From a virus (lineage: Duplodnaviria; Heunggongvirae; Uroviricota; Caudoviricetes), in the IMG/VR virus record IMGVR_UViG_2548876695_000002, positions 1 to 5,612 of that record: a stretch of DNA of 5,612 bases. One strand, 5' to 3'. A program made the position numbers and the translations under genes. Below the pieces are notes generated by a model. The model saw only the letters and a list, made by a program, of their open reading frames with translations. It ran no database searches and was not told the DNA's origin. Positions 1-5,612 of this stretch are shown piece after piece. The number at the start of each line of letters is the position of its first letter. The first letter of the stretch is position 1.

Positions 1-73
1 TTCCATCAGAAACGATGATCTGGCAGCCTGAGTTCACAGATAAAACACTCTCCAGGAAAACCGGGGCGGTTCA
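1..73 (+). mobile_element. Right terminus (IRR) of an IS3-family insertion sequence, IS629-like; element body lies left of the window
   Basis: Plus strand ends ...CCGGGGCGGTTCA at 73. Its reverse complement TGAACCGCCCCGGTTTTCCTGGAGA matches the terminus at 5541 (TGAACCGCCCCGGAAATCCTGGAGA) at 22 of 25 positions, so the two are the paired terminal inverted repeats of one IS type. TGA...TCA termini are typical of the IS3 family. Confidence 0.6.
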
Positions 74-289
74 ATCAGAGTTTGATTCAGTAACGCGTAT
101 GGCAGCTAATTCAACATTATATAAATTAAGAATGTCGAGGATGTTATTTCTCACATACTTTAATTTTTCTGGTGTGTCTAAGGTCGAAGGTATTTTAATA
201 ACATCAACACATTTGAGTGCAGACTCATTAGTGCAATATACAACAAAAGATGTAACTTTGGGCGCCGCTCTAACACCTAGTATTCTCAT
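71..289 (-). pseudogene. N-terminal fragment (72 codons) of an unknown gene, truncated by the IS insertion; the stop codon TGA is the IS terminal triplet
   Basis: ORF begins with ATG at 289 and runs leftward in AT-rich DNA (about 28% GC in 121-180 by hand count). Its stop (plus-strand tca 71-73) is exactly the last three bases of the IS inverted repeat. No recognisable family from the sequence. The antisense ORF 15-308 is an alternative reading I cannot exclude. Confidence 0.35.
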
Positions 290-340
290 TTTTTATATCC
301 TATTTTAGAATCAGGCCGCATCTCTGCGACCATCCATCAT

Positions 341-355
341 CCAAACGTCTCTTCA
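341..355. repeat. 15-bp direct repeat CCAAACGTCTCTTCA, copy 1 (copy 2 at 712-726)
   Basis: Exact 15-mer present at 341-355 and 712-726. Copy 1 lies 2 nt 3' of the 113-aa ORF stop and copy 2 lies between the cI stop and that ORF's RBS. Confidence 0.8.
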
Positions 356-356
356 C

Positions 357-698
357 TCATCCGAAGAAGCAGCAATCCGGGTCAGCACGCACAAGCTCAA
401 GCGCATCAGTCAGCGAAAGTTCAGTACTGTACTGATGCCATTTCATATCCTTCCGCATCCAATAGATTTTCCATCTATCCAGAGAACGTATGTACTTGAT
501 TCTTGCTGATGGCAGGATGTTTGTTTCACCTGGATTGCCCTGCCACACGGGGCGCTGTTCGCCGATATCTATCGTTTGGTCATTGATGCTATAAACAATA
601 TCCAGTTCATTGCGGATATGTTCAGGCGGCCTTATGCTTTCAATGAATTGGTGAACTTCTTTTTTTACTGCTTGATATTCAAGGTCATTGAACGCCAT
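357..698 (-). CDS. Hypothetical 113-aa protein, accessory gene immediately downstream of cI on the same strand (position of lambda rexA/rexB)
   Basis: Intact ORF on the cI strand with a strong SD (minus strand AAGGAGGATAG-ATG) 4 nt upstream of ATG at 698. No signal peptide or transmembrane segment is evident; C-terminus ...DPDCCFFG. Family not recognised by eye. Confidence 0.6.
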   Translation of the reverse strand: MAFNDLEYQAVKKEVHQFIESIRPPEHIRNELDIVYSINDQTIDIGEQRPVWQGNPGETNILPSARIKYIRSLDRWKIYWMRKDMKWHQYSTELSLTDALELVRADPDCCFFG

Positions 699-711
699 CT
701 ATCCTCCTTAC

Positions 712-726
712 CCAAACGTCTCTTCA
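712..726. repeat. 15-bp direct repeat CCAAACGTCTCTTCA, copy 2
   Basis: Identical to 341-355; the two copies bracket the 113-aa ORF. Confidence 0.8.
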
Positions 727-758
727 GGCCACTGGTTACCAGCTATGTGACGATGAAG

Positions 759-1466
759 TCACGAACTTTTCAGCCACTCCCTTGCCTCGATGTCATCCAG
801 ATGGCGAGATTGCTTCAGAATACCAGCTACATACTCCACCTTTGCTACTTGATGATAAGGCAACGTTATAGGCCTGTGATCCTGGTTAATGCTTGTAAAT
901 TGGTATTCTCCATCTCTGTCATAGCCAAGAACCTTAATCATGTTGTGTCCTTCAACGGTTCTGACAAACACCTCATCACCCGGGAATACTTTGGTGTTAG
1001 GCTCAATGAGTACATATTCTCCTGATTTTATTCTGGGCCACATGCTGTCTCCTTTCACACGAAGACCAAAGGCATCTGGATCATCGCTATAAATTTTGAG
1101 CCACCCATCGCGCTCTTCGGTCATCTCGATGGCACCATCAACACCAAGAATTGCCTCACCAACCACGCGCACTAACCCTTTTTTTAATTTGCCAACAAAT
1201 GAAAGAGTATCTTCATCATTCGCTCCATTTAACGAAGTGCCGTGCTGAAGCCAAACAACATCAACGTTTAGAAATTTCGCAAGCGCATTCATTTTTTCCT
1301 GACGCGGTAAAGACTCAGCATTAAACCATTTGCTAACGCCTTTGGACGAAAGAGAAAGGGCACGGGCTATAGCCATTCCCCTACCATGTTCATCAAGACC
1401 AGCTTCTTTACAGGCTTGCGCTAGCCGCTGGGCGAATTCTTTGCGCACTTTTTCATTCTGAACCAT
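759..1466 (-). CDS. cI: Phage CI-type repressor (N-terminal HTH DNA-binding domain, C-terminal LexA-like S24 peptidase domain)
   Basis: 235-aa ORF. N-terminal HTH region (...GRGMAIARALSLSSKGVSKWFN...). C-terminal domain has GDSMWP (catalytic Ser) and a downstream Lys in ...HNMIKVLGY, the Ser-Lys dyad spacing of LexA/CI/UmuD. Transcribed divergently from cro. Confidence 0.9.
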   Translation of the reverse strand: MVQNEKVRKEFAQRLAQACKEAGLDEHGRGMAIARALSLSSKGVSKWFNAESLPRQEKMNALAKFLNVDVVWLQHGTSLNGANDEDTLSFVGKLKKGLVRVVGEAILGVDGAIEMTEERDGWLKIYSDDPDAFGLRVKGDSMWPRIKSGEYVLIEPNTKVFPGDEVFVRTVEGHNMIKVLGYDRDGEYQFTSINQDHRPITLPYHQVAKVEYVAGILKQSRHLDDIEAREWLKSS

Positions 1467-1544
1467 GAGTACGATACTAAAGCACTTGCAAAAACTTTCA
1501 GTTCAACCATAATACGTACTGAAAGTACGAAAAAGGATATTCCT
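1467..1544. promoter_or_regulatory. Divergent immunity control region (OR operators, PR rightward, PRM leftward)
   Basis: 78-bp intergenic region between divergent cI and cro. Rightward sigma70-like promoter TTGCAA (1486-1491), 16-bp spacer, CATAAT (1508-1513). Inverted repeats with GTAC cores: CGTACTgaaAGTACG (1515-1529), AGTACG at 1468-1473, and ACTTTCAGT (1494-1502) paired with ACTGAAAGT (1518-1526). cro SD AAGGA at 1533-1537. Exact operator boundaries are not determinable by eye. Confidence 0.6.
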
Positions 1545-1772
1545 ATGCAAAATCTTGATGAGCCGATTAAAGGTGTCGGCATCCCTGAAGTTGCGAAGGC
1601 TTGTGGAGTTAGCGAAAGGGCTGTCTATAAGTGGCTCAAAAACGGCTTCCTCCCTAAGACTGAGTTTTTTGGGAAAACTAAATACGCATCAAAAATCGAA
1701 GAGATTTCTGGTGGCAAATATCAAGCAAGCGAAATGCTTGAAATAAGCAAAAAGAACCTTCTGGCTGCATAA
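1545..1772 (+). CDS. cro: Cro-like HTH repressor
   Basis: 75-aa ORF divergent from cI, with HTH segment GIPEVAKACGVSERAVYKWLKNG; the position and size fit a cro gene. Not lambda Cro in sequence. Confidence 0.8.
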   Translation: MQNLDEPIKGVGIPEVAKACGVSERAVYKWLKNGFLPKTEFFGKTKYASKIEEISGGKYQASEMLEISKKNLLAA

Positions 1773-1810
1773 GTAACACCGCTATTTTCACAATGGACAT
1801 TCGTCCTACG

Positions 1811-1871
1811 TCGCTGACAAAGCGAGTCCCAATATATCTGACCAACTAAGGCTACATGCGTTTCCACGCAT
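1811..1871 (+). promoter_or_regulatory. Two short hairpins in the cro-cII spacer, candidate nutR boxB-like / tR1 region
   Basis: TCGCT-gacaa-AGCGA (1811-1825) and ATGCGT-ttcc-ACGCAT (1856-1871). This is the location where lambdoid phages carry nutR and tR1. No clear boxA consensus seen, so the functional assignment is tentative. Confidence 0.25.
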
Positions 1872-1910
1872 ACCTTTCAACTAACTATTCACTATTGGAA
1901 ATCTTAAGAA

Positions 1911-2207
1911 ATGGAACAAACAAGTTACAGCAAACTATCCCAGCGTGACGTTGATCGCGCAGAAACAGATTTACTCATCAACCTGTCAACGCTTACCCAG
2001 CGCGGTCTGGCAAAGATGATTGGCTGTCATGAATCGAAGATAAGCAGAACGGACTGGAGATTTATTGCTTCGGTCTTGTGTGCTTTCGGAATGGCATCAG
2101 ACATCAGTCCGATTAGCAGGGCTTTTAAGTATGCGCTTGATGAAATCACAAAGAAAAAATCCCCGGTGGCCGCCGGGGACTCTAAGCAAATTGATATGCA
2201 ATTCTGA
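1911..2207 (+). CDS. cII: CII transcriptional activator
   Basis: 98-aa ORF whose C-terminus ...KKKSPVAAGDSKQIDMQF parallels lambda CII ...KKRPAATERSEQIQMEF as I recall it; same size and position between cro and O. Confidence 0.85.
   Translation: MEQTSYSKLSQRDVDRAETDLLINLSTLTQRGLAKMIGCHESKISRTDWRFIASVLCAFGMASDISPISRAFKYALDEITKKKSPVAAGDSKQIDMQF
1920..1933 (-). promoter_or_regulatory. Candidate CII-binding tetrad repeat of pRE (TTGC-N6-TTGT on minus strand)
   Basis: Minus strand reads TTGC-TGTAAC-TTGT across cII codons 4-8, analogous to the lambda pRE -35 region TTGC-N6-TTGC which also overlaps the start of cII. Confidence 0.35.
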
Positions 2208-2229
2208 GGGAATTACTGGATCAATCCAC
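2151..2229 (-). ncRNA. oop: OOP-like antisense RNA overlapping the 3' end of cII, ending in an intrinsic terminator
   Basis: Minus strand hairpin CCCCGGCGGCCACCGGGG (plus 2161-2178) followed by ATTTTTTCTT. The upstream minus-strand sequence resembles the lambda oop transcript (shared GATCCAGTAAT core). Start inferred about 7 nt downstream of the pO -10. Confidence 0.5.
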
Positions 2230-2236
2230 AGGAGTC

Positions 2237-2265
2237 ATTATGACAAATACAGCAAAAATACTCAA
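2237..2265 (-). promoter_or_regulatory. pO-like promoter for the OOP RNA
   Basis: Minus strand TTGAGT (plus 2260-2265), 17-bp spacer, CATAAT (plus 2237-2242); it lies inside the first codons of O, as in lambda. Confidence 0.45.
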
Positions 2266-3178
2266 CTTCGGCAGAGGTAACTTTGCCGAACAGGAGCGTA
2301 ATGTGGCAGATCTCGATGATGGTTACGCCAGACTATCAAATATGCTGATTGAGGCTTATTCAGGCGCAGATCTGACCAAGCGACAGTTTAAAGTGCTGCT
2401 TGCCATTCTGCGTAAAACCTATGGGTGGAATAAACCAATGGACAGAATCACCGATTCTCAACTTAGCGAGATTACAAAGTTACCTGTCAAACGGTGCAAT
2501 GAAGCCAAGTTAGAACTCGTCAGAATGAATATTATCAAGCAGCAAGGCGGCATGTTTGGACCAAATAAAAACATCTCAGAATGGTGCATCCCTCAAAACG
2601 AGGGAGGTTCCCCTAAAATGAGGGACATCCCTCAAAACGAGGGAAAATCCCCTAAAACGAGGGATAAAACATCCCTCAAATTAGGGGATTGCTATCCCTC
2701 AAAACAGGGGGACACAAAAGACACTATTACAAAAGAAAAAAGAAAAGATTATTCGTCCGAGAATTCTGGCGAATCCTCTGACCAGCCAGAAAACGATCTT
2801 TCTGTGGTTAAACCGGATGCTGCAATTCAGAGCGGCAGCAAGTGGGGAACAGCAGAAGACCTGACCGCCGCAGAGTGGATGTTTGACATGGTGAAGACTA
2901 TCGCGCCATCAGCCAGAAAACCGAATTTTGCTGGGTGGGCTAACGATATCCGCCTGATGCGTGAACGTGACGGACGTAACCACCGCGATATGTGTGTGCT
3001 TTTCCGCTGGGCCTGCCAGGACAACTTCTGGTCCGGTAACGTGCTGAGTCCGGCCAAACTCCGCGACAAGTGGACCCAGCTCGAAATCAACCGTAACAAG
3101 CAACAGGCAGGCGTGACAGCCAGCAAACCAAAACTCGACCTGACAAACACTGACTGGATTTACGGGGTGGATTTATGA
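2240..3178 (+). CDS. O: Replication initiator protein O (origin-binding), lambda-like, with a 13-aa insertion encoded by two extra iterons
   Basis: 312-aa ORF with N-terminus MTNTAKILNFGRGNFAEQERNVADLDDGYARLSNML... and C-terminus ...TNTDWIYGVDL matching lambda O as I recall it (lambda O is 299 aa). SD AGGAG at 2230-2234. The extra 13 residues (roughly GSPKMRDIPQNEG) fall in the iteron-encoded linker. Confidence 0.95.
   Translation: MTNTAKILNFGRGNFAEQERNVADLDDGYARLSNMLIEAYSGADLTKRQFKVLLAILRKTYGWNKPMDRITDSQLSEITKLPVKRCNEAKLELVRMNIIKQQGGMFGPNKNISEWCIPQNEGGSPKMRDIPQNEGKSPKTRDKTSLKLGDCYPSKQGDTKDTITKEKRKDYSSENSGESSDQPENDLSVVKPDAAIQSGSKWGTAEDLTAAEWMFDMVKTIAPSARKPNFAGWANDIRLMRERDGRNHRDMCVLFRWACQDNFWSGNVLSPAKLRDKWTQLEINRNKQQAGVTASKPKLDLTNTDWIYGVDL
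2589..2712 (+). repeat. Origin of replication iterons (six O-binding repeats) inside the O gene, followed by an AT-rich unwinding region (2713-2760)
   Basis: Six ~17-18 bp inverted-repeat iterons: TCCCTCAAAACGAGGGA (2589-2605), TCCCCTAAAATGAGGGA (2609-2625), TCCCTCAAAACGAGGGA (2628-2644), TCCCCTAAAACGAGGGA (2648-2664), TCCCTCAAATTAGGGGA (2672-2688), TCCCTCAAAACAGGGGGA (2695-2712). Followed by ACAAAAGACACTATTACAAAAGAAAAAAGAAAAGATTATT. Confidence 0.9.
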
Positions 3179-3876
3179 AAAACATCGCCGCACAGATGGT
3201 TAACTTTGACCGTGAGCAGATGCGTCGAATCGCCAACAACATGCCGGAACAGTACGACGAAAAGCCGCAGGTACAACAGGTAGCGCAGATCATCAACGGT
3301 GTGTTCAGCCAGTTACTGGCAACTTTCCCGGCGAGTCTGGCTAACCGGGACCAGAACGAACTGAATGAAATCCGCCGCCAGTGGGTTCTGGCTTTCCGGG
3401 AAAACGGGATCACCACAATGGAACAGGTTAACGCAGGAATGCGCGTAGCCCGTCGGCAGAATCGACCATTTCTGCCATCACCCGGGCAGTTTGTTGCATG
3501 GTGCCGGGAAGAAGCATCCGTTATCGCCGGACTGCCAAACGTCAGCGAGCTGGTTGATATGGTTTACGAGTATTGCCGGAAGCGAGGCCTGTATCCGGAT
3601 GCGGAGTCTTATCCGTGGAAATCAAACGCGCACTACTGGCTGGTTACCAACCTGTATCAGAACATGCGGGCCAATGCGCTTACTGATGCGGAATTACGCC
3701 GTAAGGCCGCAGATGAGCTTGTCCATATGACTGCGAGAATTAACCGTGGTGAGGCGATCCCTGAACCAGTAAAACAACTTCCTGTCATGGGCGGCAGACC
3801 TCTAAATCGTGCACAGGCTCTGGCGAAGATCGCAGAAATTAAAGCTAAGTTCGGACTGAAAGGAGCAAGAGTATGA
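3175..3876 (+). CDS. P: Replication protein P (DnaB helicase loader), lambda-like
   Basis: 233-aa ORF MKNIAAQMVNFDREQMRRIANNMPEQYDEKPQ... matching lambda P in length and sequence as recalled. ATGA overlap with the O stop at 3175-3178. Confidence 0.95.
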   Translation: MKNIAAQMVNFDREQMRRIANNMPEQYDEKPQVQQVAQIINGVFSQLLATFPASLANRDQNELNEIRRQWVLAFRENGITTMEQVNAGMRVARRQNRPFLPSPGQFVAWCREEASVIAGLPNVSELVDMVYEYCRKRGLYPDAESYPWKSNAHYWLVTNLYQNMRANALTDAELRRKAADELVHMTARINRGEAIPEPVKQLPVMGGRPLNRAQALAKIAEIKAKFGLKGARV

Positions 3877-4163
3877 CGGGCAAAGAGGCAATTATTCATT
3901 ACCTCGGGACGCATAAGAACTTCTGTGCACAGGACGTTTCCGCGGTAACAGGCGCAACCGTAACCAGCATAAATCAGGCTGCGGCTAAAATGGCGCGGGC
4001 AGGAATCCTGATCATTGATGGTAAGGTCTGGCGAACGGTGTATTACCGGTTTGCTACCAGGGAAGAACGGGAAGGAACGGTGAGCACGAACCTGATTTTT
4101 AAGGAGTGTCGCCAGAGTGCAGCGATGAAACGGGTATTGGCGGTATATGGAGTTAAAAGATGA
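3873..4163 (+). CDS. ren: Ren protein (Rex exclusion resistance), lambda-like
   Basis: 96-aa ORF MTGKEAIIHYLGTH...KRVLAVYGVKR, same length and closely similar to lambda Ren as recalled. ATGA overlap with the P stop. Confidence 0.9.
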   Translation: MTGKEAIIHYLGTHKNFCAQDVSAVTGATVTSINQAAAKMARAGILIIDGKVWRTVYYRFATREEREGTVSTNLIFKECRQSAAMKRVLAVYGVKR

Positions 4164-4188
4164 CCATCTACATCACTGAGCTAATGAC

Positions 4189-4220
4189 AGGCCTGCTGGT
4201 AATCGCAGGCCTTTTTATTT
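4189..4220 (+). terminator. Intrinsic terminator, tR2-like
   Basis: 8-bp stem AGGCCTGC (4189-4196) / GCAGGCCT (4205-4212) with loop TGGTAATC, followed by TTTTATTT (4213-4220). Confidence 0.7.
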
Positions 4221-4233
4221 GGGGGAGAGGGAA

Positions 4234-4512
4234 GTGAACGATAGCTACCGACAGTTTGAAAACTGGTGGTCAAAAGACAAAAGCCAGTTCACGGGAGACG
4301 ATGAATTAAAAGAGTTTGCCTGGGTGATATGGCAGGCATCGCGCTCTGCTATTGAACTGGATATCGACTGGCCCGAATCGAATGACGACCTTTGGAAAGA
4401 TGGTGAAGAAGGTGCTTATGCGATGGGTTATGAGGATGGGCGTGACAAAACGGTAATTGCAGTAATGAAAGCCATCAGGGCCGCAGGAATCAAAGAAAAG
4501 AATTTCGATTAA
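4234..4512 (+). CDS. Hypothetical small acidic protein (about 93 aa); start codon uncertain (GTG 4234 preferred over TTG 4219)
   Basis: ORF ...NDSYRQFENWWSKDKSQFTGDDELKEFAWVIWQ...IRAAGIKEKNFD. GGAG at 4224-4227 lies 6 nt before GTG 4234. The TTG at 4219 offered by the ORF track sits inside the terminator T-run and is unlikely. Inserted relative to lambda, where ninB follows tR2 directly. Confidence 0.5.
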   Translation: MNDSYRQFENWWSKDKSQFTGDDELKEFAWVIWQASRSAIELDIDWPESNDDLWKDGEEGAYAMGYEDGRDKTVIAVMKAIRAAGIKEKNFD

Positions 4513-4644
4513 GCAAATATCACTTCAATAAATCGCTTTTAAGGCATCACAATCGCTCTGTGGTGAGGTAAGCACGTGCAAGGCATGCCGATAAGCAGCG
4601 AGAATGAAAAATGCGTCAGAATGCGTTTGAGGAGGTTTTAAGAA

Positions 4645-4860
4645 ATGAGTACGATAGCTGAGCTTGTCAGGGCTAATTTTCGTGAAGAGTTGGTGCGTTG
4701 GTATCGGTATCGTTCATCGTCCAGTTTGCCGCTTGATGAGTTGTATGAGCATTCACCTGCCGCACGACGCTATCCGCGTGACCGTGTTCTTCGACGGTTG
4801 TTCAAACTCAACAATGAGTTTCAGCGCAACAGAATTATCCGGAGTCTGGATTTTAAGTGA
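4645..4860 (+). CDS. Hypothetical 71-aa basic protein
   Basis: Strong SD GAGGAGG (4630-4636) 8 nt upstream of ATG 4645. Arg-rich sequence; family not recognised. Confidence 0.6.
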   Translation: MSTIAELVRANFREELVRWYRYRSSSSLPLDELYEHSPAARRYPRDRVLRRLFKLNNEFQRNRIIRSLDFK

Positions 4861-4870
4861 AGGAGTGAGC

Positions 4871-5041
4871 ATGAGCGACCTATCATTAACCCAGCCAAAG
4901 CTAAAAGAATGTCCGTTTTGCGGCGGTAATGCTCGTCTGTGGGTTGAGGCCGGAATAAATATTGATGTGTGGGGCTATGCAGAATGTGACCTCTGTGAAG
5001 CCAGGGGGGGCATGGGCACCATCAGTTGCTGCGGCGGCTGA
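4871..5041 (+). CDS. Lar-family-like zinc-ribbon protein (restriction alleviation), apparently frameshifted at a G7 tract
   Basis: SD AAGGAG (4860-4865) 5 nt before ATG 4871. CPFCGG-x20-CDLC four-cysteine zinc-ribbon pattern. The frame ends ...GGMGTISCCGG* at 5041, but the other forward frame (codons on 5010, 5013, ...) continues AWAPSVAAAAEKWNRRAGDEANLSASQRSNQK* to 5108 and carries the A-x-x-WNRR motif I associate with Lar-family C-termini. One fewer G in the run 5004-5010 would fuse the two. Confidence 0.5.
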   Translation: MSDLSLTQPKLKECPFCGGNARLWVEAGINIDVWGYAECDLCEARGGMGTISCCGG

Positions 5042-5064
5042 AAAATGGAACCGGAGAGCAGGAG

Positions 5065-5511
5065 ATGAAGCAAACCTTTCTGCTTCGCAACGAAGCAATC
5101 AGAAATAACGCCATAGACGCCATTCTCTCACTACCCATCGACGACAAGTCACCCCACGAAGTCCACGTTAAAGAACCCAAGCGCAGCAAAGCGCAGAATG
5201 ACCGCATGTGGCCGATGCTGAACGATGTTTCGCGTCAGGTGCTATGGCATGGTCAACGGCTGGCGCCGGAAGACTGGAAAGACCTGTTCACTGCCCTGTG
5301 GCTTAAGACCAAAAAACTGGAGCAACGAAGTGTGCCTGGTATCGACGGTGGCGTTGTCATGCTTGGCGTGCGTACCAGCAAAATGCGGAAGGCCAGCATG
5401 ACTGAGCTTATCGAAATCATGTTCTGGTTCGGCTCAGAGCGCAACGTGCGGTGGAGTGATGACTCCTGGCGAGAGTATGAATGGTCACAACGAAAAGGGA
5501 GAGCTGCATGA
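5065..5511 (+). CDS. ninB: NinB (Orf-family recombination protein)
   Basis: 148 aa starting MKQTFLLRNEA... (lambda NinB MKKLTFEIRSP...), with conserved ...DQNRKLW / NDRMWP..., GDVSRQV / NDVSRQV and C-terminal ...EWKARWGDRAA versus ...EWSQRKGRAA. The upstream ATG at 5026 in the ORF track lacks support. GGAG at 5053-5056. Confidence 0.9.
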   Translation: MKQTFLLRNEAIRNNAIDAILSLPIDDKSPHEVHVKEPKRSKAQNDRMWPMLNDVSRQVLWHGQRLAPEDWKDLFTALWLKTKKLEQRSVPGIDGGVVMLGVRTSKMRKASMTELIEIMFWFGSERNVRWSDDSWREYEWSQRKGRAA

Positions 5512-5543
5512 CTATCAAATCAAATACGCCATCACACGACTGA
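5508..5543 (+). pseudogene. First 11 codons of the gene translationally coupled to ninB (ATGA overlap), truncated by the IS insertion
   Basis: ATG 5508 overlaps the ninB stop TGA 5509-5511, the arrangement at the lambda ninB/ninC junction. The reading frame MTIKSNTPSHD terminates at TGA 5541-5543, which is the first triplet of the IS inverted repeat. Confidence 0.4.
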
Positions 5544-5612
5544 ACCGCCCCGGAAATCCTGGAGACTAAACTCCCTGAGAAAGAGGTAAACAGGATGACT
5601 AAAAATACTCGT
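5541..5612 (+). mobile_element. Left terminus (IRL) and 5' end of an IS3-family insertion sequence, IS629-like; element continues beyond the window
   Basis: TGAACCGCCCCGGAAATCCTGGAGACTAAACTCCCTGAGAAAGAGGTAAACAGG-ATG-ACTAAAAATACTCGT matches the IS629 left end and OrfA start MTKNTR as I recall them. Inverted-repeat match to the sequence at 49-73. Confidence 0.75.
5596..5612 (+). CDS. IS3-family transposase OrfA, 5' partial (first 5 codons in window)
   Basis: ATG at 5596 preceded by AAAGAGG. MTKNTR is the remembered N-terminus of IS629/IS1203 OrfA. Only 17 nt fall in the window. Confidence 0.6.

Follow-up and report, generated by a model that had tools for sequence, protein, structure and literature searches.

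A probable oriStx-type replication origin with six iterons in the O gene of a 933W/P27-type lambdoid prophage

Introduction

[quoted passage not shown] 2020, PMC7466680). Iteron 3* designates the Stx-specific variant of iteron 3. In addition to the 13 residues, the O protein of phage P27 differs from that of lambda by the substitutions Gly17Glu and Leu37Ile (PMC7466680). The first description of this type of origin, oriStx, is credited to Nejman et al. 2009 (PMC7466680). A high output of Shiga toxin requires that the phage DNA be replicated, and the architecture of the origin therefore bears on the virulence of EHEC and on anti-replication strategies (PMC7466680). Here we describe an origin of this kind in a phage sequence from IMG/VR and compare it with those of lambda, phage 21 and the Stx phages.

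Results

Early region and iteron array

The window, by which we mean the whole 5612-bp stretch of DNA that was analysed, has the layout of a standard lambdoid early region, cI-cro-cII-O-P-nin, according to its open reading frames (ORFs) and Pfam matches. The principal genes, with the evidence for each, are as follows.

759–1466, − strand: gene for a cI-type repressor with a Peptidase_S24 domain (ORF and Pfam)
1545–1772, + strand: cro-like HTH gene (ORF and Pfam)
1911–2207, + strand: cII (ORF and Pfam)
2240–3178, + strand: O gene, encoding the replication initiator of 312 aa and containing the origin (ORF; Phage_rep_O at residues 22–115, E = 1.1e-35)
3175–3876, + strand: P gene, encoding the helicase-loader partner of O (Pfam Phage_lambda_P, E = 5.3e-62)
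5026–5511, + strand: NinB gene of the nin region (ORF and Pfam)

The P gene directly follows O, with a start that overlaps the stop codon of O. Between cI and the end of an insertion sequence (IS) is a DUF3024-family gene of 113 aa (357–698, − strand; Pfam E = 2.1e-31), whose position is kept in 933W-type phages according to their annotation. Towards the right end of the window, two ORFs overlap (4664–5041 and 5026–5511). In this region, RefSeq annotates a Lar-family restriction-alleviation gene as frameshifted, at 4871–5108 of the window, corresponding to 16871–17108 of L125, the chromosomal locus described below.

A repeat search of the window yielded six copies of a 17-nt unit that form one repeat family at 2588–2712. 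The copies occupy positions 2588–2604, 2608–2624, 2627–2643, 2647–2663, 2671–2687 and 2694–2710, with start-to-start distances of 20, 19, 20, 24 and 23 bp. When up to three mismatches were allowed, the consensus TCCCTCAAAACGAGGGA was found at five sites in the window, all of them within the iteron array. By chance, 0.02 sites are expected, and none of 200 shuffles reached five. The sixth iteron, TCCCTCAAATTAGGGGA (2672–2688), has four mismatches to the consensus. The iterons are imperfect palindromes of 18–19 bp that match ATCCCTCAAAACGAGGGA and have the form TCCCTC-AAAAC-GAGGGA, in which the inverted inner arms are TCCC(T/C)(C/T) and (G/A)(A/G)GGGA. The array is in frame within O and starts at codon 117, just past the Phage_rep_O domain (residues 22–115), in the stretch of the gene coding for the linker that follows the N-terminal DNA-binding domain. 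GC content reaches its minimum, 0.30–0.35, to the right of the iterons, at 2700–2759. With the iterons named as in PMC7466680, the elements of the origin are the following.

2588–2605, + strand: iteron 1, the outermost, with the same sequence as the third copy (repeats; the homologous site is annotated in 933W)
2608–2625, + strand: iteron 1', TTCCCCTAAAATGAGGGA, the sole copy without a lambda counterpart (repeats and alignment)
2627–2644, + strand: iteron 1'', identical to lambda iteron 1 (repeats and alignment)
2647–2664, + strand: iteron 2, identical to lambda iteron 2 (repeats and alignment)
2671–2688, + strand: iteron 3*, one base off lambda iteron 3 (repeats and alignment)
2694–2712, + strand: iteron 4, identical to lambda iteron 4 (repeats and alignment)
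2713–2760, + strand: A+T-rich tract of the origin, the putative unwinding region (71% A+T)

The original prediction had placed an origin with six iterons at 2589–2760. This agrees with the present annotation: the first iteron was located to within 1 bp, and the end at 2760 takes in the A+T-rich tract.

Comparison with lambda and phage 21: an in-frame insertion of 39 bp

Window positions 2540–2800 were aligned at the DNA level with the sequences of lambda (NC_001416), phage 21 and 933W. Relative to the window, lambda and phage 21 show a single gap of 39 bp and are otherwise near-identical. At the protein level, the same difference appears as one gap of 13 residues between O proteins that are 99% identical elsewhere and are 312 aa long in the window versus 299 aa. 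Four iterons are annotated within O in the lambda reference record, and likewise in phage 21. The annotation and the gap confirm the four iterons that the original prediction gave for lambda, and the possibility that lambda itself carries six was rejected on the same grounds. The protein alignment also bears out the original reading of the two extra copies as in frame and as adding about 13 residues to O; in the Stx-phage naming, the insertion creates iterons 1' and 1''.

2587–2625, + strand: 39-bp in-frame insertion, one of the possible equivalent positions being given (repeats; gaps in the DNA and protein alignments)

Since iterons 1 and 1'' do not differ in sequence, more than one placement of the insertion is equally valid. 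MAFFT gives IPQNEGGSPKMRD and the original prediction GSPKMRDIPQNEG, the two describing the same event. The inserted residues lie just past the DNA-binding domain in a segment rich in Pro, Gly, Ser, Lys and Asp. A search for a PDB chain matching O, by which the 13 residues might be placed in a structure, returned none at E ≤ 0.01.

The inserted segment (2587–2625) and the segment that follows it (2626–2664) are 90% identical, differing at four positions. In sequence terms, these data fit a tandem duplication of the iteron 1–2 pair followed by four substitutions. The alignment is consistent with both directions of the event: the Stx lineage may have gained the segment by duplication, or the lambda lineage may have lost it by deletion. 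The only other difference from lambda within the array is in iteron 3, which reads TTAGGGG in the window and 933W versus TTGGGGG in lambda and phage 21. Elsewhere in O, the window and 933W have Glu17 and Ile37, and lambda has Gly17 and Leu37.

Identity with the origin of known Stx phages

The O gene of the window is 100% identical in DNA sequence to those of P27, BP-4795, Stx2a_F723 and many Stx1a-converting phages, 98.9% identical to that of H-19B and 98.6% identical to that of 933W. The encoded protein is exactly the P27 variant of O: it has the G17E and L37I substitutions and keeps Ser where 933W has Gly. In the GenBank record of 933W (AF125520), the homologous positions are annotated with six misc_binding features, which are numbered from "ori iteron 1" through "ori iteron 6". 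This annotation and the published work (PMC7466680) bear out the statement of the original prediction that six-iteron origins occur in Shiga toxin phages such as 933W.

Overall, the feature is very probably the oriStx variant of the lambda-type origin, belonging to a lambdoid prophage of the 933W/P27 type; we put the probability of this reading at roughly 0.95. The six-iteron feature is real and was correctly read and interpreted, but it is already known from GenBank annotation and from the experimental literature. Its use is as an annotation marker for the 933W/P27-type replication module, and it adds nothing new to origin biology.

Distribution of four- and six-iteron origins

To survey the six-iteron arrangement, we used as a junction probe positions 2580–2650 of the window (71 bp), a segment for which an origin with four iterons offers megablast no seed. 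The junction was present in 72 phage records, 53 of which are Stx-converting as judged from the opening word of the organism's name. The other 19 are filed under Escherichia or Enterobacteria and, among the matches listed (details were listed for 60 of the 72 records), correspond to known Stx phages or to EHEC/O157 hosts. Among 5426 complete E. coli genomes, 364 contained the junction, with up to four copies per genome; a lambda-type origin region was found at ≥80% coverage in 1312 complete E. coli genomes.

We also surveyed iteron number in IMG/VR, using a sample made up of contigs that share the iteron 2–3 junction. Nearly all of the 124 loci fetched have either four or six iterons. Four is the majority state (about 97 of the 118 scorable loci), and 19 loci have six. 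Those scored as having three or five iterons comprise three loci with point-mutated iterons missed by the filter (L092, L078 and L035), one truncation (L036) and one with a 23-bp duplication (L117). In the last, the duplication is in tandem and covers iteron 3 and its spacer, which gives five iterons in an origin that otherwise has the four of lambda. As 23 bp do not make up whole codons, the O gene of this contig should be frameshifted. The variant may be a genuine mutation or may stem from an error in sequencing.

A further rearrangement was observed in E. coli O157:H7 F6321 (L004, NZ_CP038369.1 1530725–1531596), in which 67 bp are deleted between iteron 1'' and iteron 4. Three iterons are left in the array, namely 1, 1' and a 1''/4 hybrid, and the O gene is annotated by RefSeq as a frameshifted pseudogene. 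From its sequence, this deletion is evidently a natural, repeat-mediated collapse of a six-iteron array.

Relationship of the six-iteron origin to stx

All 5612 bp of the window recur without a mismatch in the E. coli 2011C-4251 chromosome (locus L125, 12001–17612). The window itself is without an stx gene. The prophage at this locus carries stxA1a/stxB1a at 23561–24787, downstream of Q and ∼5.9 kb past the right end of the window. A different situation was found in a dog isolate, E. coli Z1323PEC0014 (L126, 14180–17297), in which a lambda-like prophage with lambda-type head genes lies next to ybhC, at the att-lambda side. The cI protein of this prophage is the same as that of the window (WP_000250473.1), and its 939-bp O gene contains six iterons. 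No stx gene was found between the antiterminator and holin genes of the prophage.

The dog-isolate prophage led us to reject the idea that six iterons strictly indicate stx carriage. Because a prophage lacking stx carries them, what the six iterons mark is a mosaic immunity/replication module and not the lineage of an entire phage, and the 933W-type module circulates outside stx-carrying phages. Residence alongside stx is typical of the six-iteron family, not obligatory. The original prediction had suggested that the repeats may place the prophage in the Stx lineage. For the window this placement stands, given the exact match to an Stx1a prophage and the Stx, EHEC or O157 names or hosts among the phage records listed; as a general rule by which six iterons would signal stx, it does not.

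Published binding and mutant data

By sequence identity, the origin and the O protein of P27 are those of the window. [quoted passage not shown] Thus, iteron 1 gave a weak footprint in vitro. Iteron 1' also bound O weakly, yet was needed for the establishment of P27-derived plasmids, and point mutations that eliminated O binding at either iteron 1 or iteron 1' abolished such establishment (PMC7466680). The loss of plasmid establishment is not assignable to the DNA sites alone, because the iteron mutations also alter the coding sequence of O.

The authors of that study proposed that, with the additional iterons, O becomes locally more concentrated or the O-some more stable, and that these iterons offset the lower affinity of the Stx-phage O proteins for iterons (PMC7466680). 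From a secondary-structure prediction, they suggested that the added residues are not in contact with DNA (PMC7466680). Normal growth with three iterons was described by Moore et al. 1981, as cited in PMC7466680. The original prediction held that iteron number plausibly affects initiation and copy number. For initiation, such an effect finds support in the published iteron mutants (PMC7466680); as for copy number, the term "copy number" occurs 0 times in PMC7466680.

IS elements and state of the prophage

Both ends of the window (1–73 and 5540–5612) are the ends of insertion sequences of the IS3 family (IS629/IS1203-like). In E. coli 2011C-4251, the block that runs from the DUF3024 gene through cI, cro, cII, O and P to ninB has an IS copy on each side, and the two copies share 94.9% identity over 1311 bp. 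Phages of the 933W type match the window only over 74–5540. This composite-transposon-like arrangement may affect the inducibility or the mobility of the prophage. Upstream of the window in the same strain, the N-type antitermination gene is annotated as an incomplete, truncated pseudogene (L125 8436–8504). Given the truncated N and the two flanking IS elements in the complete E. coli genomes that match the window exactly, lytic growth of the prophage may be impaired, with the origin, O and P intact. Judged from these features, then, the window may derive from a defective prophage.

Discussion

The way in which this origin would function can be drawn from the scheme of O-some formation, unwinding and DnaB loading that is established for lambda, and which we infer to apply here from the near-identity of the sequences and from PMC7466680. 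Dimers of O would bind the 18–19-bp iterons and wrap them into an O-some, which would destabilise the adjoining A+T-rich tract. P would then deliver the host DnaB, and transcription from pR would activate the origin. Relative to lambda, the duplicated iteron 1–2 pair, since diverged at four positions, would add two origin-distal iterons to the DNA and 13 linker residues to the protein. The two distal, weakly binding iterons appear to aid the assembly or the stability of the O-some. No sequence evidence counts against the oriStx explanation.

Short tandem arrays are prone to mis-assembly, and rare other copy numbers do occur, as in the three-iteron array with a frameshifted O in strain F6321 and the five-iteron IMG/VR contig L117. 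An origin of the extra repeats in assembly or sequencing of the tandem array, which the original prediction had named as a way in which it might fail, can nonetheless be dismissed with near certainty. The identical 71-bp junction recurs in the 72 phage records, which are independent of one another and include the Sanger-era sequences of 933W, VT1-Sakai and BP-4795, as well as in the 364 complete genomes. The insertion is exactly 39 bp and keeps the O frame. As it differs from the neighbouring copy at four positions, collapse or expansion of a perfect repeat does not account for it. Moreover, six-iteron origin fragments of P27 and 933W have been cloned and footprinted (PMC7466680). We therefore rejected the artefact. 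If the repeats are real, they might nevertheless be neutral, a hitch-hiking duplication that is kept by linkage to the 933W-type immunity/replication module. Such neutrality would accord with the majority status of four-iteron origins in IMG/VR and with the efficient replication of lambda with four iterons, three even giving normal growth (Moore et al. 1981 via PMC7466680). However, the array is conserved base for base in many Stx1 and Stx2 phages and across the 364 genomes, although repeats are prone to deletion, and the published mutants of iterons 1 and 1' are replication-defective (PMC7466680). We consider neutrality unlikely.

It is also unlikely, in our estimation, that the 39 bp act chiefly through the protein, in which case a longer O linker would alter O-some geometry, P binding or turnover by ClpXP and the DNA sites would be secondary. 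The position of the insertion, just after the DNA-binding domain in the Pro/Gly/Ser/Lys/Asp-rich segment, is in keeping with such a role, as is the efficient binding of only the four A+T-proximal iterons with the distal two barely protected (PMC7466680). By contrast, the added residues are not predicted to contact DNA, and mutants of iteron 1 or 1' lose the establishment of P27-derived plasmids, but these mutants change coding too (PMC7466680). A further, speculative reading is that the distal iterons constitute a regulatory element, for example a weak-affinity sink or an O-some stabiliser, by which the moment of initiation following induction, and with it Stx production, would be adjusted, or else that the 13-residue linker itself was selected; we hold this to be doubtful. 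The regulatory-element and selected-linker versions are both compatible with the published mutants, in which the DNA and the protein are altered at once. If true, either would refine known biology, and both ideas are already in the literature. The oriStx assignment is the reading that we prefer.

Among more distant systems, the iteron origins of plasmids such as P1, F, R6K, pSC101 and RK2 contain direct repeats that bind a replicon-encoded initiator beside an A+T-rich unwinding element. They thus share with the window origin the combination of repeats, initiator and A+T-rich element. The plasmid initiators, of the Rep_3/RepA class, are unrelated to O, however; the plasmid iterons do not lie within the gene for the initiator, and handcuffing governs copy number, none of which is implied for the window.

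The origins of lambda (NC_001416 39034–39160) and phage 21 are much closer to that of the window. They too are within O, which is followed by the same overlapping P gene, and have iterons 1, 2 and 4 in common with it; the A+T-rich tract of lambda is that of the window except for one base. They differ in being without the 39 bp, and so have two iterons and 13 residues fewer, and in having G rather than A in iteron 3. The closest likeness is to oriStx as found in P27, BP-4795, 933W and H-19B, with which the window has in common the six iterons, their spacing, iteron 3*, the 13 extra residues and the G17E and L37I substitutions. Within the origin, there is no difference from oriStx. Outside it, 933W O has Gly at lambda position 282, where the O protein of the window has the Ser of the P27 variant.
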